NCBI GenBank assembly: GCA_001643675.2 | Contig: LSRY02000010.1 | Location: forward strand, 248,001 to 312,000 | Direction: 5' to 3' | Length of the DNA stretch: 64,000 nt | Origin: Monocercomonoides exilis PA203 | Taxonomy: Eukaryota > Protista > Preaxostyla | Shown: positions 3,541 through 26,087 of the stretch, in pieces | Position numbering within the stretch: the stretch's first letter is position 1 | How the letters are laid out: each line of letters begins with the position of its first letter | Notes under the pieces: generated by a model | Told to the model about the DNA's origin: nothing | Databases searched by the model: none | Seen by the model: only the letters and a program-made list of their open reading frames with translations | Made by a program: the position numbers and the translations under genes

Positions 3541-5742
3541 CGAATCGAAAGATCTCCGGCCTCGACTGAATATATAGAAACACCAAGTCTGAGATGGGTT
3601 TACGATTTTTTATCAAGGCAAAAACAATTGCGCATGATAAATCCAGTTCGACTTGATCATGCACGCTTGAGAGCATCGTTAAAAGCAAATATACAGTCTT
3701 TTCTTTCTCATTTGCGAACTTTGATGCTGAAGAAAAAATATCATCCTTCGTTAATATTACTATTGGACGAAACAAGTTGTCAGTCCAATGGTCGTCATCA
3801 TAATAAAAGAATTGCAAATGAGAAATGCAAATACTTGCCATGCTTGGAAACACCTCCTCTTCGTCATTTAACTCTTTTATTTATTGTGAGAGCTGATGGA
3901 TATCATCTCCCCACTCATCTCCTTTTAAGTTCAAAATATGAAAAAGAAATATACGAACAATGGAATGACGAATCGTTCGTATTGCATTCAACTCAAAAAG
4001 GATGGATGACAAAAGAGCTATTTGAAAAAATAATGTTAGAACATGTTCTTCCTTTCATTCAAAAGCAAAGAAAAGTTGTTGAAAGAATTCAACAACATCA
4101 ATATGAAATATGTCAAAAAAAATCTTGTGAATTGAAAACGAAAGAAAGAAGGTTAGAAAAATGCGATCAGAAAATGAAAAAGAATGAAACAAGTGAAAAA
4201 ACAACTCAACGAATTTTTCAAGATGAGGACGATCATGAATCAATATTTTTCCATTCATCAGCTGGATCAGAAGAATTTCCAATGGATAACTCAGATTCAC
4301 CGACAAAATCCCAGCGATCCAAAGATCAGTGCGATAATGAAAATAGTCACAAGGAATCCATTTGTATTGACAAACTGGAACTTTCAGATACAATGTCTTC
4401 AGAAGGAGATCGAATTCAAGTGTTGCAGCAACTGCACCAATCCGCATCTGGCCGTTCAAAAGAATCTTCAGAGTGTGGAAATTCTTTTCGAAACAAAAAA
4501 AGTTTTCAAATACCATCAAATGGATTTCTTAAAGTTGATGTTGATGAAATTTCTAACTTTCGTGATGAAACTTATTTAAGTTCTTCTGATGAAAGAATGT
4601 TTCTAATTGAAGAAGATGATAATAGAGATTGGTGGATAAAGAATGACACTCAGATGCAAAAAGTAAACTTTACGAAAAAAGAAATTACTCAATACGAAAA
4701 AATATCCGAAGAAAAAATAAGCAATTCATCACCCTCTGCTTTAATAATTCTTGACGGACACTCTTCAAGACAAAATATCCAGCTGTGGAAAAAGTTTTCT
4801 GAAGAAAACGTGGATGTCGTTGTGCTGCCAGCACACACATCTCATATCCTTCAGCCACTTGATCTCGGACCTAATGCAGCACTAAAAAAGCAATTGAAAA
4901 ATGTTCGAAATGAATCAAGTGTGAGAAAAATGAAAACAGAATTTTTGCCTTTTGTCCAAGCAATCGCAGATTGCTCTTATTATGCGATGGCACCAAGAGT
5001 TATAAGGCATGGGTTTTACGAAGCTGGAATAACGTCTTCTCAAATATCTCACGTTCTGAGGCGCACTTTGGATTCCTTGCCTTTCGGTGTGAAACCGGCG
5101 AGACAGACAAACCGATGGTCCATCTCTGGTAAACTAATCACATCAAATGCAGTTCTAAAGGAATGGCAAGCCTTTGAAGAGAAAAAGTCTATTTATGATG
5201 ATGAAAGAGTTGAGAATATTCATAAAACAAATATTAAGCAAAAAACGATAAAAAATAAAAAGGAAAGACCTTCATCTTCAAAAATAACTTCTTCTGATTC
5301 CAAGCTTTCAAACCTTGCAACTTATGAGAATACTGGTTTCAATACTGACACTGACGATATCTCATGTTCAACAGATTTCGAATCAGATCCAACTGATTCA
5401 CAAGAAGGGGAAGAAAATATTTTGGTCGTTCGTGTTTTCAGAAGAAAAAGCAAACGGAAAAGATTTATTTTGTGCCGGTCAGATCATTTGGATAAAGCAG
5501 ATGGTCGAAAAAAAGTATCTGATTTGTCAAGTTCTTCTAATTATTCTGAAGAAGAATCTTCAGAAACTGATCATCATTCCGACAGATTAAACAAATTGAA
5601 AGAAAAGAAAAAAAGATATCTTGACAGCAGTGAATATATAAAAGAAGATCTTTCATCAAGCAACGAAGAAGTAGATTTGGATGAAAAAAAATTGTCCAAA
5701 AAACATTCCATGAGATCGGAAAAATGTTTGCCCAAAATATAA
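3541..5742 (+). mobile_element. pogo/Tc5-type (DDE_1) DD35D transposase with CENP-B-like HTH remnant
   Basis: Motifs LLDETS, TLLFIVRADG, KGWMT, LIILDGHSSR (D at 4753) and LPAHTSHILQPLD (D at 4861; 35 intervening residues). The frame extends upstream of the track ORF to include PSLRWVYDFLSR (HTH helix-3-like). TIRs not identified. Confidence 0.85.
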
Positions 5743-7218
5743 TCTGAGCATTATGTTCTTTTCACCGATTCTGATGAAAGTGAGTACAATCCAAAGAAAT
5801 GATTTGTGAGAAATGAACAATCAAAAAAAGTTGAAAAACATATCAAACCTTTTCAATCTCTTCATATCAGACAATAATTATTCAGGAAATCACTATGCAA
5901 TTTGATTGTCAAACATTTTGTTAATTGCGTTGTTTACAACAACAAGTTTCAATAATTCTTGATAAAGAATTAGGATAACTCTATTTTTATAAAAAAACAA
6001 GCATAAGCATTTTTAATGAAAAGAAACAATAATTTTCAGAAAAAAGAAAAAAAAAAACATTTTTGAAAAAAGATAAACAAAAGAAAAAAAACAATTTATT
6101 TCATTTTCAAATTTAAAAATGAATCGCATAATAGAAAAGGCACCAAAGTTCCAGACAAAGAAATTAAGTGATCAACAAACCTGCGAAAATAAAAATAAAC
6201 TTTTTTCATTTTAAAACTTGTCGGAATAAATATACTATCAATGGTCGTGCTATTGTCTATGAAAAGAACAAAATATTATTTTATTGATATCAAAATAAAA
6301 ATAAAACACAAAGAACAAACCACATAAAGGTGATTCTTCAAAGAATGCGAACTTGCGAACAGTTTTTAACAATACTTATCGATGAAAAAAAGTTAGAAAC
6401 TACATTTCCTGAATTCATAAAAAGTCTTTCATGGAAATTGGAACACATTGAGTTTTCAAATCATTTGAAATCGAAAATTTTGATTGAAATTGAACAAAAT
6501 GTAGAATTGAACATCCTCCGTGAAAATCTTTCAAATAATATATCTAGTTAACAAACCACTTAATAATTATTGAATTGTTTAACTATTTCTTCAAAGTTGA
6601 ATAATTTATTAAACATTGTTGGATTGGAAAAAATTTTATAATGGGTTTGGAACCCATTATTTTGATAGAAAACAATGTGATGATCGTTATTATGATAAAT
6701 CTGCAAATTCATTACCATTAAAAGTAATTATGCAATAATGGTATTCTTTTGTATTTCATCTATTTCATCTATTGACTTTTTTCATATTTTTTTCATTTTA
6801 ATAAGAAAATAACATAATTTTTTTTATTTTCCGATTTTTTTCATGTTATAGAAGTAATTTTCAATGTTTCGCCGTAAGAATTTATTTATATTTTCAGTTA
6901 ATTCTTTGGCATTTTATTATTTAAGAAAAGATTTCAATTTTTCTGTTTTTTTTCACATCACAAGATTGAAAGATGTCAAAGACAAAAATTTTTTAAAAGT
7001 TGAGTAATATTTGTTGCAAACAAAAAAAGAATGAAATCATAGAAAGATAACATCAAAATAAAAATGAGAAATGTCAAAATTTTTCTTAAACTGAAAATTG
7101 TACCAAAATAGTTAATTTTCAAGAATAAAAATGAATTTTTGAAATCGACATTGAGTTTTAACAAAAATTAACATCATTTGATCAATTTTCATCATCTTTT
7201 AAATTATTCAAGATGATA

Positions 7219-7256
7219 TGTGCGGGTTTTTGCAACTGTTCGGGTTTTCCACCATA
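7219..7256 (+). repeat. Solo degenerate copy of the MITE terminus at 26937-26978
   Basis: tgtgcgggtttttgca (7219-7234) is identical to 26937-26952 and is followed, as there, by a second cgggttt and caccata. Confidence 0.55.
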
Positions 7257-7739
7257 CTATTATGTATTTAAAATTTCATTTTTTACAAAAATTGACATAC
7301 GAAATAGAAAACGATTTCTCAACAACCAAGTTGGATTTTATCAAATGGATAACCTAATAATATTTGTTGGAAAAAACAAAAAAGAGAGAGAGAATACATA
7401 AAATTTCATAATGACTGAAAGAATGTTATTTCTGTTCAACTTTGTCATTTTTAATTTTTCATTTTCTATGATCATTTTGAATATCAGCAAATCATAATAA
7501 AGGAAAAGAAAAGAAAGTAAATGAACAAAACATACACAGAAGCCGAAGCAGCGATGATCATTTTATTGAATAAAAATAAACAGGCAAGGCGAATATTGAC
7601 AGATGATAGAAAACACAGAAAAGGAAAATTTAAAATATATGAAAGAATCAAACGCAAATAGAAATTCCAATTTGAGTCGGAACCGATCGTTGAAAGATGA
7701 TGAATTGATGTGATGTTTTACGAACTGAATTTATTTTTT

Positions 7740-8500
7740 TCAAATTCCTCAATGTTTGACAGATATCATGGAAGATGAAAAAAGTTCATCCAAACTTGCC
7801 AATTGTTGATTGCAACAACACAAAAGTATTGCCTGAGTATGGTTCAAAAAGGAAGCTGTTCCCTTCATTCCAAAGAAATTGATATTTAATTGGATTCCTT
7901 TCTTTCCTCCAAAACTCCATTCTTCCTTTCATGTGTAGAGAAATAACCTTGCTGGAGTGTATCTCACGGAAAATCTATCTTCCTCCTTCTTCTCCAAATC
8001 TCATTTCAGCTGAAATGAAAACTGCCTTGAACAACAAGATTGCTTATTATTTCCAATCAAATGAATAAATTTCCTTTTGATGTTTCACTCCCACCAAACT
8101 TGAAAAACTCCATCATTTCTATTAGAACTGGACTTTATTCCTTTTCTTCATAGCACAAGATTATTTTGCAAATGAAGCATTGGACCTTGATCTTCTGTCA
8201 CTCAACAAGCATGTTCCCCATGTTCAAGAACTTTTCTTTTCATTTCTTTTGTTCAGACGATTTGTGATGATTTTCTAAATTTCTTTTCTTTTCTTCTTTC
8301 ACAATCCAATGATCCATTGACAAACGAGCTCAAAATGACACAGTCCACAAAATATGTCAAATCTTCAACAACCATCTGTTCTTGTTTTCAGACTCATTCT
8401 TCTCCACAAAAACTACTAAAAACATCTTCCGTTCGCTCATTCAATTTGCCAGATTTCTTTTCCTCTTTGCTAAAGGATTTGCTATTAATTCCGTTGACAA
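7740..8500 (-). pseudogene. Heavily decayed coding remnant, possibly the N-terminus of a surface-protein family member
   Basis: Coding-like composition on the minus strand with many stops (e.g. FSSLVG, FISAEM fragments); no long ORF. Confidence 0.25.
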
Positions 8501-8790
8501 AAAGATGTGATTCAAAAATTTTATTATCGATTTAAAAAATATCATTCTTCAAATAATATGTTGGTTTTGATCAAAAAGAAACATAAAATTTTCATTTCTG
8601 GACTTAGACGGTCAATCCTTGCGGCTTCTTCGCGATATCTTTAACATTTCTTTTTTTAAAGCAAAAACAGAACAGTTTGTGTTGCGATCATTTTAGTACT
8701 GCAATATAATCAACGATGTTTGTATTTATCTTTTATTTTGTTATTTGCCAGCTTTGCCCCACTTTTTGAATATTTTTTGCAACAAACAGA

Positions 8791-10190
8791 ATGAGCTTGC
8801 CAAATGATATATCTGAAAATGAACTTTTGACCACAGCCAGAACCAAGAAGTTTTCAAGTTTGTTCTTTTATTTGGATTGAACAATTTTGAAAAAGAATTT
8901 GTTTTTTTGAATGTTTTTTGAAGAATTGTTTCGTGAACTGGAGCGTTGCAGAGAAGATAAACAAAAACGGAAAATTGAGGAATTGAACAGATTAATTGAT
9001 GAAATGAATGAAATAGAATTTAGATCAATTTTCACAGAAGAACTATTTAATAAAATTCACCAAATGATTGAAGAAAAGAAAATGCGAATGGAAATTGCCA
9101 TTATCCTGATAAAACATGTTGGATATTGCAAAGCATTGAAAAGATTTTCTCTTTTTTCTTTTGATAATTCATTGCTGCGTGAAAGAATGAGAGAGATGAT
9201 GATTGATGAAAATGAGAAGAAAAAGGAAATAAACGAAAAAATTCTTACAGATCTCTGCGAATGCTATTTGTTGTTGAACAGATGGTTTTCATCTGAAATG
9301 GATTCAATTTGCGTGCCTTGCCTTCTGAAAGAAACCGGGAAGAAAGAAGAAAATGAGGTAATTCAAAAAGAAGTGGAAATGGTGTTACTGGCTTTGAGTT
9401 GCACCTATAAATATGATGTATGTTCGCTTCTATTTCCTTTTTGATGCTTTTGAAATATTTTTTTAATTCTGATTAGAATGTGTCAAAAGAACTGTATTTG
9501 AATGAGATCAAAACGATCATCGAATATCATCAGGAGCATCACAACCTTACCCGACTTGCCTATCAATCAGCTTGGAGGTTTTTGATAAACAGATATTATT
9601 ATGAAAATGAGAAAGATGTGATTATAAATGAACTGCATTTTAAAAGAGAGGTTGCAGGAGAATTAGAAGATCTTTTGAAGTGTATGGATTGGAAAAGAAA
9701 AGTTAAAGGAAGAAAAGAAATGTTTATAATAAGGAGATGGTTCGATGTTATTCATAATTTCTTTTCCTCATGCACATTGTGGAACGAAGAACTTGCTGGA
9801 CTCCTCGGAAGCCTCGTGAAATTATTTCGAACATCAAGGGACAGTCACAAAGATACAAGCTATGGATGCCTCGATTCACTTAGATATGCATCAGAAAAGA
9901 GAAATGTGAAAATTGTTGACTTGTTGAAAAGTGGAGCTATTGGTCTCTATTTGGAGGAAATGAAGCAATCAACTTTGGATGAAAAAATTATATGGTATTG
10001 TTTTTATTTCTTTTTGAATGTTTCAAAAAAATTTGATGAAAAGAAGGTTGATGAAATTGAAGAAGAAGAAAGAAAAGAAATGAAAAGAAAGACATTTGAA
10101 AGGATGGAAGAAGAAGGATTTGAAGATTGCATTGTGAGTTTTCACGAAAAGTTTTTTTCAATAGAAAATATTATAATGGTTCATCTTTGA
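8791..10190 (+). CDS. Lineage-specific expanded-family helical protein, three exons
   Basis: ATG at 8791. GT-AG introns 8858-8923 (joins TKKFS-K-LFRELE) and 9418-9476 (joins KYD-NVSKELYLNEIK) both preserve frame and merge track ORFs 8911 and 9480. Possible frameshift near 10150. Confidence 0.75.
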
Positions 10191-10310
10191 ATATTTTTGA
10201 TTATTTTGTGAATATTTGAGAAAATGAAACTCACTTTGTTAACAAATATTTTTATTTATTTGTTTTATACCTCTGTGGCATGGCAAGTTGTGGAATTATT
10301 TGCCTATCAC

Positions 10311-10449
10311 AAAAAAATAAAAATAAAAATAAAAATAAAAATAAAAATAAAAATAAAAATAAAAAAAAAAAAAAAAGAAAAAGAAAAAAGAAAAAAGAAA
10401 AGAAAAAGAAAAAAAAGAAAAAGAAAAAGAAAAGAAAGAAAGAAAAATA
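10311..10449 (+). repeat. (TAAAAA)n / (GAAAA)n A-rich simple repeat
   Basis: Direct reading of the sequence. Confidence 0.95.
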
Positions 10450-10535
10450 AACTAATTAATTAATTAAAATGAAAACAAAATAGTACGAATAATAGAAAAA
10501 ACTTTTAAAAACTTTAAAAAGAGCTTTGGAAAATT

Positions 10536-10880
10536 TTGTTGATCGCATATGAAATTTCTGATATTTTTTTGTCAGTGACGATCACTGACAAACTGAAGAT
10601 GTATGGTCCCATTAGTTCAACAACTCCAATGAAAAATACATATGGCACGACCATTATTATCCGTAGTAATCAACAGATAATCAAAAACCTACCAGACAAC
10701 TTTAATGTAATAATCTCAGGATATGCAGTACTAAAAGCAAGTGCAGACAAGATGTGCAAGATTGTCCCAATATTTGGTTATTTCGTGGATATGACCAGAG
10801 AAGGCTGTAGTAATCGTTTGCTCGTTTGGCCAGGTGAAACTGTAGAAAGTGGTGAAACAGGGGGTTATACAGCTTGGTGA
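10536..10880 (+). pseudogene. C-terminal fragment of an unknown element gene (beta-strand-rich, possibly structural)
   Basis: Coding-like sequence starts abruptly at ~10570 after AT-rich DNA and lies just upstream of the fibre gene. The track start is a TTG in host-like DNA. Confidence 0.4.
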
Positions 10881-10941
10881 TATCTCTAGGCGGAATACTT
10901 CAGACAAGAACACCAACATGTTTATTTTTTTTCAAACTTAA

Positions 10942-11784
10942 ATGACAAATGTTTTGAACGCGAAACTTGCGTTAATGTTAATGCAGAAAATACAGTATCA
11001 ACAAATCGCAAATGAAGTGAACGAAGTGAAAGAAGTTGTCGAAAATGTTAGTGGTGAGTCAATAGAACACATCAGAAACTTATCACAAATTAACTCAAAA
11101 ATAACCGGGCTGGAGAGTGATATAACTGAAATGAATGCAAAACTTGGGTAAAAAGCGAGAGTTTTCAACACTTACGAAGACATGAGTGAGTGGCTGAGTG
11201 TTCAAGATAATGTGAATACTTTGCAAATAGGTCAAACATTCTATATTGTTCTGAAAGATGTTCCTGATTATTGGTTTGATGGAACACAATTTTTGGAGAT
11301 AGAAACTGAGATAATAACACTCGAAGATTATTACAACAAAACGAATGTTGATGCAATGGTGGAAGCTGCTGTTAATGCTTTGTTCAACAAGATTTACCCA
11401 GTTAATTGTGTTATTATGAGATACAGTGCTGACGATCCAAACACACAATACACTGGTACAACATGGACAAAATTGACCACTGGCAGATATGTTAAGTTAG
11501 GCGTAATTGCTGGAGAAACTGGTGGTTCAGCCACAATGACAAGTTCATCGACAAAATTGACTGTTGATCAAATGCCTTCACATTCTCATTCGTTAATACT
11601 TTTCTAACAAGGTGGATCCAATCATAATGGATATTCTCTTGGCGGACACTTTTCAGAAAACAATAACGGTGTAATGTGTGGGGAAGGAAGCACCAACGAA
11701 GTGGGAGGTGTTCAAGGTCATGCTCATACTGTGTCAGTGACTCCATCATATCTCACAATTGAATTTTGGCGTCGAACTGCCTAA
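10942..11784 (+). pseudogene. Phage baseplate/tail-fibre-like protein (T4 gp10 C-terminal-like domain), two in-frame TAA stops
   Basis: ORFs 10942 and 11182 plus 11608-11784 are one frame with TAA at 11149 and 11605. Coiled coil, then VPDYWFDG, then IYPVN..DPN..GTTW..GRY..GETGGS..LTVDQMPSHSH..GHAH..PSYLTIEFWRRTA-stop. Confidence 0.75.
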
Positions 11785-13022
11785 CTTTGAAACATAAAAT
11801 AATTTTTGACAGCATCTGGAATCGTTTGATATGTTAAACTAACAAACTTTGTGAAGCATATCGGTAATTCCACAATTTCTTCAGATGGGATAATGGAACA
11901 AATAACATTACCGTGTTTGTATTCAATAAATTTTGCTAAATAATTAAAATTCCTTCGTTTCTTCGCAAATGCGTTTGACTTATAAAAGTGAATCATCAGT
12001 GTATAACCCTCAGAATAGTTGTGCATACTCTTTTTCATTTGTTGTTTCGTGAAATTTTTCAATGACTCCTTCACTTTACGAATATACATACCTTCAAGCT
12101 CCAAATCATTTTCAACTTCTCTGGGAGAATGCAAGTTGAAATAAGCTGAGTGTGGAGTGTCGTTGTAATAATCCACCAATTGTTGCATCATTCGTGGATC
12201 AGCCATGTTTCGAACATTATATCCAAAGCCATCTCTAAGTGTTCTGATCGCTCGATAAACAACACTGTTATGTTTCGTTTGTTTGCTGCTTGTGAAGAAT
12301 GTTTGTATTTCAATTTGTTCAAAGAAATTTGTTTGTCTCCTGCTTGTCCACACAGCTTCACGATCACTTCTAATGTGTTTTGCGTTAACTTGTTTTATCA
12401 GTTGTTCCAATGCTCTCAGCAATGCATTTTCTGTTTTATTGCTTATGGTGATAACCACAAGGAACTTCGTATTCACGTTAATTGCTACCATGAATGTGTT
12501 CAACAGTCTGTTTCGATCATCATTCAGTATAATAAGGTCAATCTCATATAAATGGAATGCTGGTGAGAAATATGGGTGTTGGAGTTTCAATAAGGGTTTT
12601 TGTTGATAATCAGCGGGGACTTCTTTTCTAAACAAAGGTTTGGACTTGAACGGAAAAATCAAGGGTTCAACATTATTTTTCGCAATATTCTTCTGTGTTT
12701 CCTTCTGTTGAATTCTTCGCATATGGAGTGGATAATGTTGGTCAATCTGTGGATTAAGTTCGTGGAGCAAATCTAAGTATTCATCATAGTATTGTCGGAC
12801 TGTTTTGTCACCATAATATATTTTTTCCATATTCTGTTCGATAAGTTTTCGTTTATCTGCATCGTGAGCTGTGAACTGTTTCTTAATAAATGATGACTCA
12901 GCTTCTAAATACTCCTGCTTCAAGAACGAATTGATAATTGTGGTCACATTATCTGAAGCTTTGTCCTTGTCCAATGACTGGAATAAATTATTCCATTAGT
13001 CAAAAATATTCTCCGAAGCCAT
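11781..13022 (-). pseudogene. Retroviral-type (rve) integrase of Maverick/Polinton
   Basis: YEIDL, FMVAINVNTKF, IRSDRE, NSVVYRAIRTLRD, YYNDTPHS. Upstream ATG at 13022 is in frame via a TAA at 12996-12998; the third acidic position reads Y. Confidence 0.85.
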
Positions 13023-13032
13023 TTTCAAATCG

Positions 13033-16000
13033 TTAAATAACACAATAATTCTTGGCCGATGCATTATACATGAATGATGCGCAACTTTCATCATCTAGCA
13101 CTACCATTTTCGTGTGTATTCCACTCAGAGCATTCTTTGTGATCCTCAGTTTTTTCATTTCACATTTCACATTCCTCAGGTTCAAAGATACAGACTCAAT
13201 AACAACATCATCAATCAGTGTTTGCAGGCAATCATTTACTTAAATTTCCTTTAATGTTCCATCCATTCCGATCACTTTAGCTGCAAAGCTCATGTAATTA
13301 TCATTGGTGTTAACCCCTTTGTTTTTCATAATCTCTATCCCATTGCATCGTATTGTGTAAGATTTTGGAGATAAAGTAATCATCCAATCACAAACTCTCT
13401 CAACAGTTAACCCCAACAATTTCTTTTGCTCCTTCACATCTGATGTTCCTGGAAACCAATATCCCACATGTTTGTTATTGAACTCGCGATTGATAAATAA
13501 TGCATCAAACCCCTGATTTATCCCGAGCTTGGAATGACCACAAATAGACCAATATGCACTATCAGTGTCACCTTCAATGAAATGAATACGTTCTAAATTC
13601 AAACATTTCATCATGAAGATGAAGACGAATCTGAGATACCACACTTTGGCGTTATCCAATGTCCATACCGCTGATTGCAAACAAGTGCAGCATGCTGCTT
13701 GTCTGGGCTGTTGTTCAACAGTGGACACATTAGCCCCCGGTTTCTGAGATGACACAAATGATAGAAATATTTGAGATCTCACTGTTTCTTCCTTCGATAA
13801 TAACGCTGTCTTTGGAAATATTTCAGTGTTCATACTATCATAAGCATACGATGAATTCAGCAGTAATTTCATAAACAGTGCTTCATTTTTGTTTCCCTCA
13901 GCAATAGCTTTAACCAGTTGATCCATCAAAGCACAAGCAAATGTTTTGAATACAGCGTTCTTGCTGAAGACAGCCATTTCCTTTAAATCATCGATCACAA
14001 GCCCACATTCCTTAATCATATAGAAGAGATGCTCGTTTGTGAAAGACATGAACTGGTTGTGAGTGCTAATCAATTGGGTGATTTTTGTCTCACGTTTGCC
14101 TATGTGTAATAACTGATGCTTCATTGTGTCCATCATTTTTGTTCCAACAATGTCTTCATTAGTGTTGAATGTTAAGTTTCTGATAATTGGTGGAAAAAAT
14201 AAACATTTGTTGATGTGTGATTCTTTGATATGTCCTTTCAGTGAAACAATGAATAATTTATCGTGTTCTGCAATGATTCTGTTCAGAACATCCATCTTTG
14301 TTGTGTAGAATTCACAATGCCATGGGATGTACATTCGTTTTCCAAAACAGTTCTTTATTGATGAATATGCTGATGGATACAAACTGTTGAAGTCCACACC
14401 CATAATGTGAGTCATGATGTTCGGAGTATTTTTTGATATTATCGTGTTGTCAGCATGGTGGAAATGTGATATGTGAGATTCGCCAGCAATGTTGATTCTG
14501 TGCATAACATTTGACAATCCCCCAGTTATCGAAGAACGTAATAACGAATATACTCTTGAATCATCGAGTGCGAGAGGCAAGTTATGATACAGCGCGAACT
14601 TCTTCATCTGTATTCTCAGTCTCGTGAGGTGTTCATCCCTGTCCGATTTCACAACATTGCAATACAAACACGAAAACTTCACATTATCTATTGAATGTCC
14701 TTTCGAATTATCTATTCTGTAGAGTGTGTGCTTATTGTTTGTAGTGAACGAAGCGTTGCACAAATGACATTTTTGTTGAAATAGTTCAACAGCCCAGTCA
14801 TAATCATCATTAGTTATTGAATTATTTCGCAAACTTTTGGCATCCTGAAGCTTGTATCCATCAACCATTTTCCTCCACTTTTCCGTTGTCAGTTTATATG
14901 GTTTCTAATATTTGGAAATAAAGTAATCAGCATGAATATCAAAGTCTGGATATGGTGGATAACCTGTGAATAATGATGGAAAATAACAGGACACAAACTT
15001 AGCAGCAGCTGCATTCGATGCTGCAGAAACTGAATGGATCATATCAATTTTGAAACGAGCGAATAAAATAATTTGATTTCTGATGGGTTTAATCATAATA
15101 ACAGTATCTTGCTCGTTATAATATTTGAAATAATCCCATCTGTTATTGAATTTCTGTTCATCATCAACATATTCGTTGTATTGTGTTTCAATCAGTGTGT
15201 TAATACCTTTCAGTGATGAGTGAAACGCTGTATGAGGGAATGGAGTGGTTTGAGTTAGCACTTCTTCATAATTAGATGAATTGATGGCTTCGTGTGGAAA
15301 CGCACCTTTCTCTTCACTTCCATCACCAAAGTCTTTGACAAACGAGTCAAAAGTTTGAGGAAATACATAATGTATTCGATCAACGAATCTCAATATGATA
15401 TGTTTGATGTTGTGAGATACCATAATCTGTTTGGCATGGTTCAGTTTACCAAGAACTGATGTCACAGCCAATTCTTCAGATATTTGATACGGGATGATAA
15501 ATGCGTTGTCGAAGTTCGATGAATTCCAGCCGATAGCATTAACAACTTTTGCATTATATGGGATATTTTCATCCTCATAACGATTTGATTCTGCAATTCG
15601 GTCAGCAATTGTAAACATTCACATGATCGCTTTTGTGATAAAACATTCACTATCTGTTGAATCTCGTTTATCGAAATACTGTGTGGACATTTCATCACTT
15701 ATTACCGCTGTCATTGTAATCGATAATGGTATTAGTTTGCTGACTGTCTGTGTTTTATCCCATGTTTCCTCTTCATCGGCAAACTTTTCTATTGTTTCAA
15801 AATCAAAAGCAATTAAATTCATTGTTGGTTTCCACTTGTCCATCATTTCGTGTGCAAGCAAGTATTCAGTTGTTTTGTTGTTCAAAATGGCTGTTGACTC
15901 TTGGACCGTTTTATTGTTTTTGTCTCTCCTTCTTTGCATTTAGCTACATGTTTTTCGAAAAGTTCAATACAATGGTTATCGACTTTGTAAGGTCTGGCAT

Positions 16001-17309
16001 ACGATAAACAATATGGGCAAACCTTCATTTTTGTCAACTTGTCTGGGTCAACAACGTGCATAATATGCATTCGCTCAGGTGCATTAATGAGCAATACATT
16101 CAAAGTTTTCTCAGCCTCAGGGTAAATATAAAACTGTGACAGGTGATAATTGTTTTTGGAGTTGTATGCATACAGATTAACGGAAACATTGAAGAAAGTC
16201 GTGAATTTGTCCATTTCTGTTGCAATATTTAATCCTTTGTGTGTTCTCAGATATGGTGTCAACAAACGTTGTTTACTGTTATCATAATTATAGAACTCAG
16301 CAAACAAACGCTTCGCTTCACACAACCTCATGTTGCTGCTGATCTTTCTATCAGCCGGCATTGTCAAAAAGGCTAATGCAATAAACATACAGATGGGGTA
16401 TTCACAATTAACGTGATTAACATTGTGTGTGGCAATGTGTTCCGCAAGCCCCGGGAAGTTCATCCCAATCTCTCGCAAGTAATACACCTTGAACATCACT
16501 GAAAATATTGCACACATTCTGTTTCTTGTGTCCAGAAAAGTTAAATCTTTGTTGTCTAGTATCCTCCTGTTCATTGCCTCTTTGAGTCTATCAACATCGA
16601 AGGCTGATGACACAATCATCGGTCTGGTTGTGATAAATGCTTGCTCACTGTTTGGTAGAACAGCATGGTATATGTACTGAGGTATTCTATCAATTTACCC
16701 TTCCAGTCTTTCGAATATCACACCAAAATCATACTGTATTTTTATCGGCATTTTCATTTTCTCTTGTTCGATAACATGTTTCAAGAAATTGACGATATTC
16801 TCGAATGAACAGATGCGATTGTTATAGTAATATCGGTAAGGTTCTGAGTCATCTGATACATAAGTGGGTTTCATTGATTTTCGTATACGCTCCAGTTCAA
16901 TCTCAAAGTCATGAACTTGGCTTAGGGGAAACAACAAAAGTGTACTGTTTTCTTCATCATCTGATTCAAGAGCTGTTTGTTCAATTTGTTGAGTATTGTT
17001 TGTTGACTCGTTAATGAATTGAAGCTTTTTCTTGAAGAATTGTTCTAATGCATTCTTCTTATCAAACTTATCAGCCTCGGTTTCAGCAATCTGGAACATT
17101 TGTTGAATATCTTCCATTATTTCGTCTGATATTTTTCGTTCGTTAGTCTCATGAAATGAACAGATGTCATCATAATCACTGTACTTGCCAGCATAACCAA
17201 GTATCGAAATATGTTGGTGAAACTGTGAGACTTTCGCAAAGTGATGAACAGCTGTGGGCTTAAACTTAAACTTCTTGCACAATTCAATTAATTGATTTTT
17301 ATTTAACAT
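13033..17309 (-). pseudogene. Protein-primed family B DNA polymerase with HNH/endonuclease-VII-like insert
   Basis: Exo I AFDFET, Exo II GWNSSNFD, KGAFPHE, Exo III YYNEQD; Pol A DFNSLYPS, Pol B KLLLNSSY, Pol C EGDTDS, KGVN. CxxC..TLYRIDNSKGHSIDNV..CxxCN lies between exo and pol. Five track ORFs join through in-frame stops (16695 TAA, 15619 TGA, 14905 TAG) and one frameshift near 15885; the frame continues past TAA 13240 to a final TAA at 13033. Confidence 0.9.
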
Positions 17310-17351
17310 TTTAATCACGAAAAAAATAAATTTTCTTTCACTTATTTTGAT

Positions 17352-18305
17352 TTATTCAATATCCATTGCTGATGGATCTGATGGAACAGATGACGAGGAA
17401 GCTGAGGCAGAGGAATCTCTGTATTTGTGTACAATATCAATAAAAGGATTGGAATACGCTTCATTGAGATTAAGCTCAATTTGTTTAAGATCTTTCTTAT
17501 TGAATACTCCTTTAGCCACTTCAAGCGTTGTGTCAGAGTATCTTCCCATTAAACGTTCAAAGTCTCCTGCCGTTAATTTGCCATGCAATTTTTTCCAAGT
17601 TCCTCTGTTTTTCTGTAATAAGTGATGGACATCATTAGCTGTGTCATATGAACTTTATGTTGGGTCGATTGCAACGATCATATCTTTTATAAGACATCGA
17701 ACGAAAATCACGTTTGCAAATTTCATCACACAGGCTGAATATGCCAGTTTTTGTTTTTTCATAAAATCATCAATTGCCGTATCCTTCCAATCAACATCGT
17801 TAAGAATCGACTCAACAACCCTTCGTTTGAAGTCAATATTTATGTTAGTGACCTTGTGTCCTTGCACGAACTCCCTTAATGATTGTTTTTTTCGAACCTC
17901 ATAATCAAGGTATCTATCCACAAAATCCTGTGTTAATTTTTTTCTCTTTAATTCATCACCTGTTACATATCCGTCCGTTGCATATATCTTCCCTTTGGGA
18001 TCTTTCCATATGATTTTGTCAGGAGTTGCCGGGTTATTATCATGATCAATTTGGTCAAACGTCCAGGCTTTATCTCTCCAAAGCTTCCTCCGTTTTAGAT
18101 TATCCTCTCCAGATTTTTCTCCGATCAGTTCTTTAATCGTCCGTATCTCACGTTGTTGATTAATTACGATGTCGTATAAGTCCTCCATTTGCTTGTCATG
18201 ATCACGTTTTTGTTTAGGTTTAGGTTTAATCGTTTTTCTTTGACCTAGTTGTGCCGCAATATCTGGCAACGATATCACACTCTTTGATGAAGTCATTGTT
18301 TTCAT
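17352..18305 (-). pseudogene. Hypothetical element protein (~317 codons) with one in-frame TAA
   Basis: Track ORFs 17655-18305 and 17352-17588 share a frame; only the TAA at 17655-17657 separates them. Confidence 0.6.
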
Positions 18306-18316
18306 AGGAGTGAAAA

Positions 18317-19220
18317 ATGATAGATAGTGATGCGAAACAGCTTGTTGACGAGATCAACGTTTTATCATTAGAAAACTGTGTCAATGAAATGATGGAAGAC
18401 ATGAACGATAATCTAACAGATGAGTTGCAGACTGAGATACACCCTGACTTATCCTTCAAACGCAATTCTGTTTCATTACTCGTGAGGGCAAGATGAAGTG
18501 GTAAAACATACAGTGTGTTGTACGAAACGGCGAAAGTTAGTGAATTGAACGATCTGTACACAAGATTTCCAGAAATTCAATACAGTCCATATTCGCTGTT
18601 TGTGTACATTTCTGATAAAACAATAGATAGAACATTCGCGAGAATGGAAAAGTTCATTAACATCCCCATTGTGCAAGTGCGTTACAAAGAAGCATTTCAA
18701 ACATTAACCGATATAAGCAGAACCAAAGAACTGCACAATCGCATTCGTTCTGGTGAACAATATGATGAAGATATTCAGCAAGCAGTATTTGATTCATTGA
18801 ATGTCAATGATTCATAACAAAAACATCATCACACCGCAGTTTTTATTCGATGACTGAATGGAAATATTCAAAAAGAAAGATTGCATCTTCCAACTGTTAT
18901 TCGAGAATGGACAGCCAATGATCACACACTTCTTATTCTTGCAAGATCCAAAAGGAATAAGTAGTGAGGTGAAAGCTAACTTAGATGCATTGTGGATTTT
19001 TGGTGAATTCTCCAAACAGAAGTTCAACTATGTGTATCATCAACTGCCGACAAGCAAAGATCGTGAAGAAATGCGGAATATTTACAAGTATCTGAACAAA
19101 AATGATGTGATGCATTGTTCGTTTAACACTGACGAAACTGTCATTAAAACAGTAGTTAATGAGACAATGTTTAAGAAAGATGATGACAAAACAACGACAC
19201 TGAGAAGACGAACAGTATAA
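18317..19220 (+). pseudogene. Virion genome-packaging ATPase (A32/FtsK-HerA type)
   Basis: ATG 18317; Walker A region SLLVRAR*SGKT (TGA at 18494); Walker B FLFDD before 18858 after a frameshift; FLFLQD motif C and downstream NLDALWIF. Confidence 0.75.
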
Positions 19221-19238
19221 ATGAAATAATATGAATGT

Positions 19239-19601
19239 TCATTCACTTAGCATTTTGAATGTTTTCAGTGCTTCAATAACGACTTCCATCTGCTTTGCCA
19301 ATGTGTTGATGGAATCAATGATACCGTCGAAATCTGGATTTTGTTTATCTTCGTTGATGGTACTTTGCTCGTGACATTTCTTTAATGATATTTTACCTTG
19401 AAGTTTGGTGATTCGATATCCAGGAATGTGAAACTGTTTGTTCAGCTTGCAAGTGGTCAGTTTATTCATCTCCTCTTCATTATCAGCGAGATATTCTTTA
19501 AACTCCTGAACTGTTTCAAATGTTCTGATGTCAGGAGAAAAAGGTTCAATGATAGTTAAATCTGGTAATTCTTTTCTAATAGTCTTAGATGTTTTTGACA
19601 T
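19239..19601 (-). CDS. Small uninterrupted element protein (120 aa), function unknown
   Basis: ATG-to-stop ORF convergent with the ATPase (18-bp gap); IIEPFS..TF.T..EF and TTCKLNKQFHIPGYRITK segments plus a C-terminal coiled coil. Confidence 0.6.
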   Translation of the reverse strand: MSKTSKTIRKELPDLTIIEPFSPDIRTFETVQEFKEYLADNEEEMNKLTTCKLNKQFHIPGYRITKLQGKISLKKCHEQSTINEDKQNPDFDGIIDSINTLAKQMEVVIEALKTFKMLSE

Positions 19602-20930
19602 CTTTTGAAGAAGATAAAATACATTTATTGATTCTGTTTCACATTATCACTTTATTTAAGAACACTATTATTTATGTTTCATTGATGAAATTTGAAACAT
19701 AATGTGAGGTGTTTGGTTTTGTGATTGATTTGAATTAGATTATTATTATTTATTTATAAATTTTTATTTTCGATATCGATAAATTATTTATTGTTTAATT
19801 TTGATTGTCATTAAGCACTTTTCATTAAGCACTTATCATTTATTACTGTGAATTAGGTTTTGATTTTGAGTTCTAAATTCCCTGCGAATTTGACTGCTGA
19901 GCAGCTATGAGCAACACTGTCTCATATATCGCAAAGAGGCATGATTTATTTGATTTGACAAATGTTTGAAAATTTGTCGCCTCTGATGGGTATTGAACCC
20001 TTGATTTTAATAATGAAAGGCCATGGTATTCCCCTTAAGTTATAAAAGCTAAAAATAAATTTGCATATTTCATATTTTCTTTTATTTTTAAAGATAATAA
20101 ATGAACATATTTTTTTATCGATACCAAACACCATTGCAATCATTAACACCCATCGACATTAATTACAACACCTCACCCCCCACAAAACGTTACCACACAA
20201 CCTCCACTTTAGAGACTCAACTCCCGAAAGCATTTGTGAACTCCCAACGAATAAGATACATTCACGTTATTTAGTACAAACTGATCAAGAAAATCGATCT
20301 CAATAAAGATCATCCCAACGAACTCGTGGATGGGGACAAAGTCTCCTTGAGCAACTTCGTAGCGAACACTATTGCACTTGATGAACCCCAGCATGTATCT
20401 CTTCATGCCGATTTAATTCACGAGGACAGAGACAACGACAGTTTAGTGCGATACTGCAATAATATATCAAAAACGAGACAAATATTAATAGTTCATCAGA
20501 CGAGATAGCTTCAAAGTGTGGTTTCAAAACTTGGATGGAACACTGTTGGATATGACAAATGTGAAGTTCATGTTGAAGAACATGCTGGAGTATTTGAGTG
20601 GACTTTCACATTGATGAAATACAACTGACCACACACGTTTGTTGTATCATTAGTTGAATCGTCAATTATTTCAAACAGTGTCCACTGAAGCGCTATGGTG
20701 GATAGCCAATGTCAATATTTTTTGAACAAATGGCATTATGGTGGATTGTCACATAGATGTTTTTCATTTGATTTGGTGGTTGTTTTGGTGTATTCAACTT
20801 GAAAAAGTGTAAATCGGTGTCCAGAATACGAAATTGTGGTAATGTCTGAGACTCAGCAGAGGGATTTATAGGTTAAATCTCCGTGCTGGAAGCGTTGACA
20901 GGCAGTCCGGATCTTTAAATATCATCTGAG

Positions 20931-21132
20931 AAGAGCTGCCAACATGCTATTTTTACCAACATGAGCATTTAACTCCTTATTTATCATGATTTTGAGGGTT
21001 TTTATTTATTTTCGATTGCATCATCATTCTGCCACATTGCCACATGGAATCGTTGGTGGAATATAACTGGTGGCACACACTTCTTGTATCATTGGTGTAT
21101 TAATGATTCAAAAAAAACGAATATGTTTTGTT
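20931..21132 (+). repeat. Left arm of inverted repeat flanking the primase-helicase
   Basis: 20931-21096 is the exact reverse complement of 23805-23970 (166 bp); near-identical to 21132; degenerate similarity continues outward to ~20630. Confidence 0.95.
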
Positions 21133-21434
21133 GTTACAAACAATTATCACACTGGCCCGGGTCAATTGGGCAGTTAATTTAGTGCTGTGGCGTTGAAATA
21201 TTGGGCTAAATCTCCGAGCTTTTCACCTGCACTGTGTGCACCGCATCAATTGTATCCTATAAATAATGTGGGCAAACGGGTGAACTGAGCATAGTGGGCA
21301 AAACACATTTAATGTGAAAATTAACTGTTATCGTTCATTTTCGACATTTCCTTTAACATCATCTTCCCCGTAAATTTGCGTAACAAAAATAAATCTGTTT
21401 CAAAAAAAATTTTTGTTTTTTTAATTTTTAAAAA

Positions 21435-23770
21435 ATGACAAACCCCCAAACAGACACTGACAACGTGATCCAACAACTAATTGATTCAATGTCAACAGAA
21501 CAGCAAACGTTGGGAGAACGAATGAAAGATCACATTGTTGACTTGTTCGACTACAAGAAATACTCTGACAAGAAGCAAGGTCAACGCCACACTGGAACAG
21601 TTGTCGATATCAGTAAATGTGAGGATCTTTGTGTCGTTGATGTTGACATTAACAAATCCCTTCAAACTGAACAAACGAAAGCCATCAGGAATTCCATCCT
21701 CAAGATACTCCCCCGAAATGTGGGACTTGTACAAACAGCTCATGGCTGTCTTCATATTTATTGTGAGCTGTGTGATTATCTCCTCAAATGTTCGTCACAA
21801 ACCAAAGTGTTTACGAGTCCAGAGTACGATATCGACATTTTTGCAGGTATTGTGGATGAAAAACATAGGTTTGTTGCACAAGTTGACTCTTCATACAGAG
21901 AAATGAAAGATGGCAAGAGAATCGTCACCAAATACATTCCCCTCAACAATTACAGGGAGCTCAGGGATTTTTCTCCACTCGAAAGTGTTCTTGACATCTT
22001 CGGTATTGATCTCAAAACAGAGAATTCATCAGCCGTAATGGAAGCTGAACCACACAATCTTCTCACACAAGATAATGTCGTTGATATGTTTCCAACTGTC
22101 GCTCTTGCTCTTATCGATGGACTCAAAGATGTTAAAATACATAACGACACAGGTTCTTTGTTACTTGATTCTGAGTTAACTCTTTTCTGTTGTTTGCAGC
22201 TCTCAATTCTCTTATCAACATTAATGGTTTCGTCAACGGATTGATATATTTTCTTTTCAATCAAATCAAAGAGACAGCCTCTCTTACAGCAAATGCAATC
22301 ACTAACTTTGAACAGAAACGAAACAGATACAGAGACTGCAAGTCACATCCATTTGTTCAAAAAAAATTGTCAAGAGACGGAATCCAACATATTACAACGA
22401 TGTGATCATTCCACTCCTCAGAATAGAGAATGAGCAAAATGAATAACCTCCACGAGAGATTACTGCACATGAAATAGATCTCAACTCATCGTTCTCGTTC
22501 TCTGAAATCAGGGATCAAGCTTGTCGAAAACAATACTCCTCACTGCCTGAAGTCGCTGAAGATCTCACAAAAGTTCTGAGGTTTGTTGAAGCAAGGATGG
22601 AATTCATTGTGAAAGAATTTGACATTCACACCTCTTGTTATTCGATAACATTCAAGACAAAACCTGCAATGAACGAACTGTTCAAAACATAAAAACTCTG
22701 GCATGATGATAAAAAGACTTTCACTGTTGAGACAGCTTTCGAACAATACTCTCATGTTCTATCGATTGATGGGGTGAAGTTCTTCACAGATAACCCTCGA
22801 ATATTCTCTCTATTCCATGGGTTCAAATGCCAAATGGCAAACGAACAAAACGACGAAATCATCAAACCATTCCTTGATTTCACACGAGAAGTTTTCGCCA
22901 ACGACAACGAATAACTCTATCAATACATCCTCTGTTGGATTGCGTCAATTGTTCAAAATTCTGGTCATAAAGCAGAAACATCACTTGTTCTCAAAGGTTT
23001 GCTAGGAATTGTAAAGAATGTCTGGACAAATGTCCTTACTAAACTGTTGGCAGGATATTCATGTCCGAATGTCACAGGGATTGCAGAACTGACAGGACAG
23101 TTCAACTCCATCGTCGAAGGGAAAATGCTTATTGTTCAAAACGAATTGAAGAATGTTGGAGATGATCAAACAGCTAACTTTTATGCATTGAAGAGTATAA
23201 TCACGGATTCAACAATCAGAATCAATGAGAAGAATCAGCCAAGAAGAACAGCTGAGAACGTCGCTTATTTCATATTTGCGACAAATCACACGTACTCGGT
23301 GAAGATTGAGATTGATGACAGAAGATATGTTGTTTGTGATTGTAACTCAAAAAACAAGAATAGTCTCATATTCTTCAAGGATTTCACAAGCTCTTTCGAC
23401 AATGAATTCCATGAACAACTTCTCCGTTATTTCCTCAGCAAAGATCTCTCCAATTTCAACACAAGGGATAATCCAACAACGGAGGCAAAGGAAGATATCA
23501 TTGCAGCATTACTCTCAGTTATTGAGGTGTTCTGTCAGGAGCATTGCAATAAACTCAAAGAAGTGTGAAGATGTTCCGAAGCACTCAGTTACAGACCAGT
23601 TGAATTCAAGAACTATCACTTATTCCAATTTGCAATCAAAGACAGATGTGAGAGAATACGAGAAGGTGGAAGAGGAAACAAAATCCAACGTTATGAACTC
23701 AAGCCAGAGTGTGAACCACTTTTCAAACGACAAGAAGATGAAGATTACATGGACTGTTCTGTTGAAATTA
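21435..23770 (+). pseudogene. Primase (AEP/Prim-Pol-like) fused to superfamily 3 (D5-like) helicase
   Basis: CVVDVD and TAHGCLHIY primase motifs; Walker A KGLLGIVKN, Walker B LIVQNE, LKSIIT..RINEK, FATNH, DDRRY. Frameshifts near 22190 and 22360; in-frame TAA at 22444, 22690, 22912 and TGA at 23566. 3' end approximate. Confidence 0.85.
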
Positions 23771-23970
23771 ACAAAACATATTCGTTTTTTGGAATCATTA
23801 ATAAACCAATGATACAAGAAGTGTGTGCCACCAGTTATATTCCACCAACGATTCCATGTGGCAATGTGGCAGAATGATGATGCAATCGAAAATAAATAAA
23901 AACCCTCAAAATCATGATAAATAAGGAGTTAAATGCTCATGTTGGTAAAAATAGCATGTTGGCAGCTCTT
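23770..23970 (-). repeat. Right arm of inverted repeat flanking the primase-helicase
   Basis: Reverse complement of 20931-21132; degenerate extension to ~24200. Confidence 0.95.
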
Positions 23971-24807
23971 TTCAGATGAAATGAAAAGATCCGGTTTACT
24001 GGTTTACAGGTTGACGCTTCCAGCACGAAGATTTTTGTCAATATTTCCCTTCTCCCAGCATCTCGATGTTTCCACAATTTGGAATCCTGAACACAGGTGG
24101 ACACTTTTTCTGTGCAAAAATATTGATGTTGGCAATCAACTTTAATTCCATCGTAACTTCTGTATGATTCAATCAACAAAACAAATAATGTGAACCACTT
24201 GTTATTTTTCGACAATTTGCCCATTTTGCCCACTTTGCTCAGTTTGCCCGTTTGTCCATATTATTTGGAGAATGAAATTGACACGGCGCATCCTGTGCAC
24301 AAAATGCAGGTGAAAAGCTCGGAGATTTATAACAATATCTCCATGCCACAGAATCACTCACATCACCTGACCAGTTTAACCGGTGAAGGCAAACAACCAT
24401 AAACTTTTTCCATCAACTCATCTCACATCTCATCACTTTCGATTAGCTTTCTCCTCAATATCTTAATCAATTTCTACTGTTTTTAAGATACATGTTCATT
24501 GGAATCCTCAGTTTTATCATTTCGTTTTTCCTGAAACTGTTTTATTTGTTTCTGTCGAGCCGCTTTTGCTTCTTCCACAGTTGTGAATATCTTCTTCAGA
24601 CCCATTTGGTATAAAACAAAAAACGAAATCAATTATTTTTATTTGCTATTTCACCCACGCTTACATCACATGTTCAACACATGTTCAACTCATGTATTTC
24701 ATCAACGAAAACACAATTTTTCACACAATTTCACCAATTATTTACCAACTTGAACATAACTTTTGTTAATCTTCCAGTTAATCTTTTTGCTAATTCTCCT
24801 CCTTGGA

Positions 24808-25054
24808 GATATGGTATATCAGCTATGGATATATCTCGATTACACCTATCAATAACTCCATCTTTATAGAACATCACTAAATATCTAATCATGAGAAACC
24901 CCATAAGAATATCAGCAATAACCCTCGATCTCTAACTTATTATCATTGCTTATTCCAAATTATGATACAAGATGATAACAGCCAGTAGATATTCATAAAT
25001 CGATAATATTGATTGACCTAATCGAGATGGATCTATAGCCGAAAACCATATATC
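24808..25054. repeat. Long imperfect hairpin near the right end of the viral element
   Basis: gatatggtatatcagctatggatatatctcgatta (24808-24842) pairs imperfectly with taatcgagatggatctatagccgaaaaccatatatc (25019-25054); further patchy pairing inside. Confidence 0.6.
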
Positions 25055-25657
25055 AAAAACACAATAAAATCGTTCCATTTTTTGACATTTTTGAAATGTT
25101 GGAAAACTTTATGTTTTGATTTCTAGGATACCTGTTTTCGGAAATGAAAATCAATATAATATCAAAATTTGAGAAAGTGTTATAGAGTTATGAGTTAAGC
25201 AATTATTCAATGCCATGCGCAAAAAAAACTTTAAAGTCCATATTTTCCCCCATTTGTGCGTATTCGGTTATTTGAATAACAAAAAAATCATTTATGCACG
25301 CTTTTTAATTTTCAATCTTATTAGGAACCTTTTTTCACAAATGATAATCGCAAAAAGAAAATAATTACGACTTCTTATGTATTTTTCACCTTTATTAAAT
25401 TTGACACAAACTCATATGTGTGATTATTTTTGAAATCATAAAATTTTTTTGGGGTTTGTGTTATTTTCTCATTCGCAGTTAATTGCAAAAGAATTTTCAA
25501 AAAAGTGTCACTTGCTTTTAAATTGTAGTCTTTCAAACGCATGTTGTCACGGAAAGATTAAGTTCATTTCTGATTTTAATGAAAACATGGAATTAATTTT
25601 CAAGTGTTTTTGACCAATTGTTAATTCGAAAATTTTGATAGAAAAAAATATGAAATC

Positions 25658-25816
25658 AAAAAAAAAGAAAAGAAAAAAAAGAAAAAGAAAAAGAAAAGAA
25701 AAAAAGAAAGAAATAAAGAAATAAAGAAATAAAGAAAGAAAAGAAAAGAAAAGAAAAGAAAAGAAAAAAAAAAGAAAGAAAAGAAAAGAAGAAAAAAAAA
25801 GGAAAAGAAAGAAAAA
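25658..25816 (+). repeat. (GAAAA)n polypurine simple repeat
   Basis: Direct reading of the sequence. Confidence 0.95.
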
Positions 25817-25828
25817 TTTTACACACAT

Positions 25829-26087
25829 GGGTGATTATTTTTGAAATCATAACTTTTTTCGGTGTGTCGATAATTATGAAAAATCATTGTCATTAACCTT
25901 ATAATTATCATTTGAATATAAATGCTATTTAATAGTATCAAAAACAAAAGGTTGATGAAAAATAAAGAAAGAGATGTTATTTATTAGAATTATCACTTTT
26001 CATTATTCATTAACAAAACTTTTAAAACAAAATTGAAAAAAACCGAAATTTTTGTTCAAACAAATATGATTTCAAAAATTATCACCC
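25829..26087. mobile_element. MITE with GGGTGAT(T/A)ATTTTTGAAATCATA TIRs flanked by AT
   Basis: 25827-25851 vs reverse complement of 26065-26089 match at 24/25; a third copy lies at 25416-25440. Confidence 0.6.

Follow-up and report, generated by a model that had tools for sequence, protein, structure and literature searches.

A Gp10_C-family fibre-like pseudogene beside an rve-like integrase gene and a broken protein-primed-type DNA polymerase gene in a metamonad chromosome

The window, by which we mean the whole stretch of 64,000 nucleotides that was analysed, contains on its forward strand a fibre-like pseudogene whose translation combines a predicted helical N-terminal part, a short module named after its PDYWFDG motif and a C-terminal head domain. 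An open, rve-like integrase gene converges on it from the opposite strand, the stops of the two genes overlapping by 4 nt at their 3′ ends, and is followed by a disrupted gene for a protein-primed-type family B DNA polymerase (PolB). All three genes lie within one single-copy block that is bordered by high-copy repeats (Table 1).

Table 1. Features of the fibre locus (positions in the window; codons and residues of the fibre features are numbered along the fibre frame).
Feature	Position	Strand	Remarks
Single-copy block	10475..19518	.	fibre, integrase and PolB, plus ORFs at 16800-19600 (-); high-copy repeats on both sides
Fibre-like pseudogene	10942..11784	+	281 codons including two internal TAA and the terminal TAA; by translation, Pfam Gp10_C, PHROG tail/tail-fibre families
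N-terminal helical part, predicted coiled-coil shaft	10942..11148	+	residues 1-69; AF2 helices 2-35 and 40-68
In-frame TAA, codon 70	11149..11151	+	Y at this position in the M. exilis homologue; run contigs agree
PDYWFDG module	11152..11379	+	residues 71-146; small beta-rich knob and neck helix, predicted trimerisation unit
Gp10_C-family head domain	11380..11781	+	residues 147-280; conserved P-S-H-S-H, C-terminal W-R-R-T-A; PF21939
In-frame TAA, codon 222, within the head domain	11605..11607	+	run contigs agree
Terminal TAA of the fibre frame	11782-11784	+	by translation
rve-like integrase ORF, open	11781..12974	-	349 codons from ATG or 397 from TTG; Pfam rve below cut-off
Protein-primed-type family B DNA polymerase pseudogene	13039..16793	-	frame change, in-frame stop, premature stop

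The sequence-only reading of this DNA had singled out one frame with two internal TAA codons, and translation confirms both the frame and the presence of every motif that had been quoted from it (VPDYWFDG, IYPVN, GTTW, GR, GETGG, LTVDQMPSHSH, GHAH, PSY and WRRTA). Over the length of the gene, the fibre frame contains three stops, whereas the other five frames contain between 11 and 27 and about 21 would be expected from base composition; its openness is thus beyond chance and that of a recently disabled open reading frame (ORF). The GC content of the gene (~0.32) is like that of its surroundings, and no second fibre copy was found by tblastn in the 64-kb window. An upstream ORF at 10536-10880, which contains a GETGG string, was considered as a second fibre remnant and rejected, hhalign assigning it a probability of 0.5%. 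Further upstream, where the single-copy block begins on the left, lies an A-rich microsatellite (10224-10463) made of AAAAT and AAG/AAAG repeats, which are K/E-rich in translation.

Logan contigs of four DNA runs, which derive from one sample and one study and are maybe the source of the assembly itself, were compared with the window over positions 7001-27000. Contigs from three of these runs cover the fibre gene (X1, 10475-19518; X3, 10547-12034; X2, 10631-14003), each without a differing letter. As far as run contigs from a single sample can show, neither internal stop is an assembly error.

The head domain had been described as T4 gp10 C-terminal-like, an assignment which is upheld by profile comparison. 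Residues 147-279 match the Pfam family Gp10_C (PF21939) along its full model (profile positions 1-139 of 139) with 31.6 bits for a cut-off of 27 (E 3.7e-7), and relatives of the fibre (P0002, P0071, P0073, P0077 and P0083) score 38-101 bits with the same family. The translation also matches PHROG families of tail proteins (1.3e-13) and tail fibres (3.4e-11), and a profile built from six relatives with the full architecture (A3) retrieves two solved relatives from the PDB, the gp10 protein of Klebsiella phage KP1 (5.6e-7) and the C-terminal domain of T4 gp10 (2fkk, 6.8e-5). When the single fibre protein was used as query, the PDB returned nothing relevant by sequence, and tblastn of P0001 against GenBank phages gave no match at E ≤ 1e-3. 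The phage tail collar family PF07484 (T4 gp12-type) was absent among the seven Pfam families found at E ≤ 1.

Structural comparison leans towards the same family. An AF2 model of the fibre, computed from 120 aligned sequences, reached a pLDDT of 80.4 overall and of 54-72 across residues 190-270. Foldseek of this model against the PDB gave nothing at E ≤ 1e-3, the top-ranked entries being gp10 chains (E 9e-3 to 9e-2), and VIA-align returned Z-scores of 7.3 (9f4b_FA), 7.2 (2fkk) and 7.0 (5iv5_AC) over 50-60 aligned residues, which are middling values. In BFVD, 31 matches were obtained at E ≤ 1e-3 (down to 1.8e-7), including baseplate and Gp10_C predictions, and the named ones are phage baseplate, tail or tail-fibre proteins, bar one Klebsiella-phage protein labelled as an endoglucanase. 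The paired HxH motif, by contrast, is not the T4 gp10 hallmark that it had been taken for: PSHSH is invariant in the fibre family, while T4 gp10 reads PSHT at the same place in the HMMER alignment, so that HxH is a trait of the subfamily. In T4 itself, the C-terminal domain of gp10 is a part of the baseplate and is not known to be the receptor binder; for this reason, ligand binding by the window fibre has to be argued from the tip position of the domain in other family members.

N-terminal to the head, the coiled coil announced by the sequence-only reading is recovered in part, as two long predicted helices but only as helices (Table 1), and the Pfam matches of residues 1-69 to coiled-coil families are no more than weak. 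The region between shaft and head proved to be a widespread module. An exhaustive library search with the fibre returned 1962 matches at E ≤ 1e-3, 118 of them at E ≤ 1e-10, and about 100 of the 150 best matches cover the N-terminal module alone (residues ~45-145), which occupies varied positions in proteins of 107-2718 amino acids. Together with its preceding helix, this module follows the pattern KARVF...WL...G..FYI...PDYWWDG...LE, and neither Pfam nor PHROG has a family of its own for it. It was found at 17 gut-type bacterial genome loci, including a termite-gut Treponema MAG and members of the Lachnospiraceae, Prevotella, Eubacterium, Oscillospiraceae, Bacteroidales, Campylobacteraceae and Vibrio. 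One N-module protein could be assigned through its cluster to a Lachnospiraceae MAG. Among 401 Lachnospiraceae genomes, 25 encode either the module or the head domain, and in no case do both occur in one ORF. Six of the bacterial ORFs with the module were compared with PHROG: one clearly matches a tail-fibre family (1.3e-32) and one, weakly, a tail family; another two fall to phage families that lack a known function, and the last two have no match. JGI metagenome contigs gave 173 pattern matches to the module alignment and a single tblastn match, which was discarded because it is an MBL-fold hydrolase of bacteria in which the string YEDMSQWLS occurs by chance.

Judged by these comparisons, PDYWWDG is a widespread module of phage and prophage fibre-like proteins. 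Its predicted fold (residues 71-130) resembles the trimerisation domain of collagen XV/XVIII (VIA-align Z 5.4-5.8) and, to a lesser degree, the N-terminal knob of the HylP tail fibres of streptococcal phages (HylP residues 10-67; Z 3.6-3.8), which suggests a trimerising unit. Since both modules are phage-type, the whole protein, and not the tip alone, consists of phage-type parts that shuffle in the manner of tail-fibre modules.

The trimeric build implied by the sequence-only reading was modelled on P0002, an intact homologue of the fibre, and the prediction agrees with it. Three copies of P0002 reached ipSAE values of 0.84, 0.84 and 0.83, while the best of three controls scored 0.00; the mark used for this score is attained by 21 of 30 solved homomers and by none of 23 solved single chains. 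At least 95% of contacts are common to the runs, with a partner pLDDT of at least 84, and H155 and H157 of P0002, which form the conserved HxH motif, are placed at the predicted chain interface. The model thus supports a predicted homotrimer, with a score that may echo the model's memory of solved gp10 trimers.

P0002 corresponds to MONOS_14978 of Monocercomonoides exilis and is the only named eukaryotic homologue. The window fibre is 43% identical to it overall, 63% in the N-terminal module and 41% in the head, the latter being 30-38% identical to the nearest other relatives. The full shaft-knob-head architecture is present in P0002, P0071, P0073, P0077, P0078, P0083, P0110, P0161 and P0185, of which P0083 is encoded on contigs from NCBI that reach 189 kb. 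In IMG/VR, 246 stretches encode relatives, and at the four loci inspected (L001, L002, L020 and L036) Gp10_C is the C-terminus of a tail protein, followed at L002 by an endolysin gene. Of 80 IMG/VR loci bearing the head domain, none carries this PolB, the integrase or the N-terminal part of the fibre, and a search of IMG/VR with P0073 gave 21 pattern matches and no relative. No T. vaginalis or S. strix homologue is named among the best 120 of 417 profile matches, which argues that the fibre gene is not conserved in the PolB lineage. In a FastTree phylogeny of 241 head domains (130 columns), five eukaryote-type rows fall together with 12 others in a clade of 17 rows (SH-like support 97), within which the window copy is sister to P0071; as the rows carry no organism labels, the tree has no word on the donor or on the direction of transfer. 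The earlier proposal of a source in gut phages is in keeping with the distribution of the two modules, the relatives of both being located in tailed-phage contigs and in gut-bacterial genomes, and a phage origin is for this reason the best inference, from databases in which gut genomes are over-sampled.

The gene that converges on the fibre matches the Pfam integrase family rve with E 5e-5 and 23.9 bits, under the cut-off of 32.6. In the Atlas it lies nearest to clusters of rve proteins from Preplasmiviricota and Parabasalia (0.85; 181-192 features in common), a result which is used as a lead only. The PolB pseudogene is better defined: tblastn matches of P0012, P0013, P0015 and P0048 span two frames and extend past the ORF stop at 13240, and its translation shows the Exo II/III and Pol A/B/C motifs. 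The frame changes near 15900, and the gene further contains an in-frame stop besides the premature stop at 13240. The 61 homologues, several of them with PF03175, include many S. strix proteins and multicopy T. vaginalis clusters, with which the window PolB shares identities of 35-45% in alignments that cover up to 98% of the query. Within the PolB coding region, positions 14000-14200 (minus strand) encode an inserted Cys-rich segment (CHLCN...CLYCN) with weak HNH matches (E 0.37-0.89), and this insert is conserved in the listed homologues from S. strix, T. vaginalis and metagenomes. Two homologues labelled as bacterial (P0053 and P0054, from an uncultured Brachyspira and an alphaproteobacterial bin) are eukaryote-type PolB proteins with 34-38% identity and are probably protist element DNA that was binned with bacteria.

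Depth in run X1 is flat, at ~98-100, across 10475-19518, and that of the flanks is 10-200 times higher. The 9-kb block is part of a 1.93-Mb contig, and within the window the element has host-type genes on either side; the element is integrated in the host chromosome. No terminal inverted repeats of the block were found, the inverted matches that bound it being of low complexity only. Neither in the ORFs nor in the read-through frames of 11781-19601 did Pfam, which may miss divergent proteins, recognise a capsid protein (double jelly-roll major capsid protein or penton), an FtsK-type packaging ATPase or an adenain-like protease, and an Atlas search with the ORF at 17655-18305 returned nothing usable (scores ≤ 0.85, TM < 0.36). 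The sequence-only reading had placed the fibre inside an integrating eukaryotic virus. What stands of this claim is the proximity of the gene to an rve-like integrase and to a Maverick-type PolB; what does not stand is an intact virus, since the broken PolB, together with the failure to find capsid, ATPase and protease genes or terminal repeats, makes of it a truncated and decaying Polinton-type remnant.

A further pair of repeats lies outside the block. This 58-nt, 79% pair, at 7219 and 26633, has its end motif in common with a nearby foldback element and is ambiguous. This foldback (26662-26965) has 105-nt arms that are 99% complementary, and its end motif, TGTGCGGGTTTTTGCA, occurs by itself at 7219 (7219-7276) as well, with four matches in the window for 0.06 expected. 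The 7219/26690 pair, 19.4 kb apart, could delimit a larger composite, or its members could be separate copies of a single small element.

Several other elements populate the window. Two ORFs at 8911-10190 (plus strand), which have no Pfam match, lie in a repeat of about 60 times the single-copy depth, and this high-copy gene or repeat family abuts the left edge of the single-copy block. To the right of the block, an element of ~3.1 kb (20907-23994) is framed by 210-nt inverted repeats that are 97% complementary and contains an ORF with DUF5906, the C-terminal domain of D5-type primase-helicases (E 4.8e-17); its depth of ~13-20 times single copy makes it a member of a multicopy family. Three ORFs encode DDE transposases, two of them DDE_1 and one DDE_Tnp_4 (3634-5742 on the plus strand; 28096-29127 and 31058-31660 on the minus strand), and the window is a mosaic of DNA transposons. 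Near its right end are a 3715-codon ORF without Pfam match (49147-60294, plus strand), in a stretch of very strong GC skew (0.43-0.49 over 52-60 kb), and a minus-strand ORF of 1096 codons (60706-63996) that runs off the window end. The latter contains a tyrosine recombinase domain (Phage_integrase, E 3e-6) and may belong to a Crypton or DIRS-like element.

Collectively, these data make it very probable that the locus holds a phage-type fibre pseudogene of the Gp10_C family beside an integrase gene and a broken PolB gene. That this fibre was once the virion attachment fibre of the adjoining decayed Maverick/Polinton-type element is the reading which we favour, taken as a whole, with moderate confidence. 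In its support, the stops of fibre and integrase overlap, one single-copy contig covers the three genes at equal depth, and PolB is broken as well. The linkage of fibre and element is known from one locus, and the element may once have formed particles. According to the predicted layout, a helical shaft (residues 1-69) would carry a trimerising knob (71-130), a neck helix (133-151) and a distal head (152-280), and three chains would assemble into a homotrimer with the HxH motifs at the chain interface, as modelled on the intact M. exilis homologue. An ancestor of the element may have acquired the two-module fibre in one piece, the source being a phage or prophage of bacteria that shared the habitat of its host. 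Mounted on the capsid, the trimer would have bound a ligand on the surface of the target cell, as is thought for the fibres of polinton-like viruses and adenoviruses. After integration, neutral decay would have introduced the disabling mutations seen in both the fibre gene and PolB. Being a pseudogene, the window copy has no function now. A wider proposal, which we put forward more tentatively and would rather doubt than assert, is that a Maverick/Polinton lineage of gut oxymonads adopted as its capsid fibre a complete short tail fibre, with shaft, PDYWWDG knob and Gp10_C head, from phages of bacteria in the same gut, that the window contains a fossil of it, and that the intact Monocercomonoides copy is maybe still used by an active element or by the host.

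In some oxymonads, TAA and TAG code for glutamine, and the 141-codon piece between the two internal stops was called as a protein (P0070) in the source data. Both observations would suit a gene that is still functional, its TAA codons being read through, recoded or produced by sequencing errors, which is nevertheless highly improbable and largely refuted. Standard-code ORFs of 3715 and 1094 codons are open in this window, without TAA or TAG, and its long ORFs end in TAA (several of them), TAG and TGA; TAA is thus a stop in this host, and an alternative genetic code was ruled out. In addition, a TAA directly follows the family C-terminus WRRTA, the contigs of three runs carry identical letters, and the adjoining PolB has a frame change plus stops of its own. 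Scarcely credible is a bacterial or phage contaminant that was mis-joined into a eukaryotic assembly: although all relatives of the fibre but one come from bacteria, phages or metagenomes, that one eukaryotic protein is its closest homologue, the fibre gene has the same depth as PolB and integrase beside it, fibre and integrase are found together on single contigs of three runs, and the gene sits, with the GC content of its surroundings, in a contig of 1.93 Mb.

A more serious challenge to the favoured reading comes from the possibility that the gene entered alone from bacteria or their phages, was never part of the element and came to lie beside the integrase by chance or through a pile-up of repeats and elements. 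We consider this unlikely, while giving it real weight. In the annotation of M. exilis, the nearest named homologue counts as an ordinary protein, T. vaginalis and S. strix share the PolB without a fibre homologue among the matches listed, Pfam found no capsid module in the block, and the window is a mosaic of transposons. A lone entry would, on the other hand, have to account for the 4-nt overlap of the 3′ ends of fibre and integrase, for their confinement to one repeat-bounded single-copy block and for the same kind of decay in the fibre gene and PolB. Moreover, it is not evident what a cell would gain from a stand-alone virion fibre, while polinton-like viruses are known to carry such fibres, as reported in the available portions of PMC12220804. 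Within the favoured reading, the sequence-only reading had gone one step further and proposed that the fibre stuck virions to bacteria, or to bacteria-like glycans, so that they were swallowed by a bacterivorous host. This special case is a speculation with a slim chance of being right. It would fit with the phages and prophages of gut bacteria in which relatives of both modules reside and with the gut-dwelling flagellate that is the closest named eukaryotic carrier; yet in the accessible text of PMC12220804 the eukaryotic host itself is generally seen as the target of polinton-like virus fibres, and the heads of the two eukaryotic copies, 41% identical to each other and 30-38% to others, have diverged to a degree at which the specificity of the donor may have been lost.

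That viruses of the Polinton type borrow fibres from phages is known already, as far as the available text of PMC12220804 goes, and the window gene is a further example. It would add a fibre type, with a Gp10_C head and the PDYWWDG module, to the phage-derived fibres of Polinton-type elements, and a host group, the oxymonad-like metamonads, to those in which such elements carry them. The gut-bacterial and phage kin of both modules fit a gene flow from phages to eukaryotic viruses in a shared habitat, of which the direction and the source are inferred. A side product of the analysis is the PDYWWDG module itself, a widespread phage and prophage fibre module without a Pfam or PHROG family of its own. 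As the window copy is dead, its value is that of a historical trace, and further study should turn to the intact homologue of M. exilis.

Compared with the C-terminal domain of T4 gp10 (2FKK) and with KP1 gp10 (9F4A/9F4B), the fibre belongs to the same Gp10_C family, aligns with Z 7.0-7.3 and, through its homologue, is predicted to form a trimer. However, those proteins are baseplate wedge proteins of 600 residues, whereas the window gene encodes a stand-alone fibre of 280 residues in a eukaryotic element, and it differs from T4 gp10 by its PSHSH in place of PSHT and by the lack of any phage tail module around it. Unlike the Gp10_C relatives at the four IMG/VR loci inspected, which are parts of tail genes, it is located in a eukaryotic chromosome and has an rve-like integrase and a PolB for neighbours. 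The PDYWFDG fold is like the trimerisation domain of the multiplexins, collagens XV and XVIII, with which it aligns over whole domains of 53-56 residues (Z 5.4-5.8); with identities of 8-16% to these collagens and to HylP and middling Z-scores, the likeness is one of fold and probable role and no kinship is claimed. The "phage tail collar domain" proteins of the giant viruses Fadolivirus and Orpheovirus likewise bring a phage tail-tip fold into eukaryotic viruses, but they match far more weakly than phage proteins (BFVD E 9.7e-3 and 3.3e-2), belong to a different realm and carry collagen fusions.

The closest known systems among eukaryotic elements include the T. vaginalis Maverick/Polinton elements and the PolB elements of S. 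strix, with PolB proteins 35-45% identical to that of the window and an adjoining rve-like integrase. In contrast to these, the window copy is single, truncated and broken, and a fibre homologue of theirs is absent among the matches listed. Literature searches found no paper on Maverick elements in Monocercomonoides, a general review alone on polintons and none on PF21939. The available portions of PMC12220804 and PMC8502044 do not mention gp10, while they describe comparable fibres. Polinton-like viruses and virophages carry phage-like fibre proteins, as in Gezel-14T, for which the domains catalogued include the Peptidase_S74 chaperone, laminin_G_3, collagen, PTR and BppL_N (PMC12220804, as available), and adintovirus-like elements contain genes labelled "Fiber" (PMC8502044, as available). 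The window fibre differs from the polinton-like virus fibres in lacking an S74 domain (no PF13884, PF13385, PF01391 or PF12789 at E ≤ 1), in its oxymonad-like metamonad host and in being dead. With these fibres, as the accessible text of PMC12220804 presents them, it nonetheless shares its main traits, namely a modular, phage-derived fibre gene in a Polinton-type element of a protist, with a presumed role in attachment.
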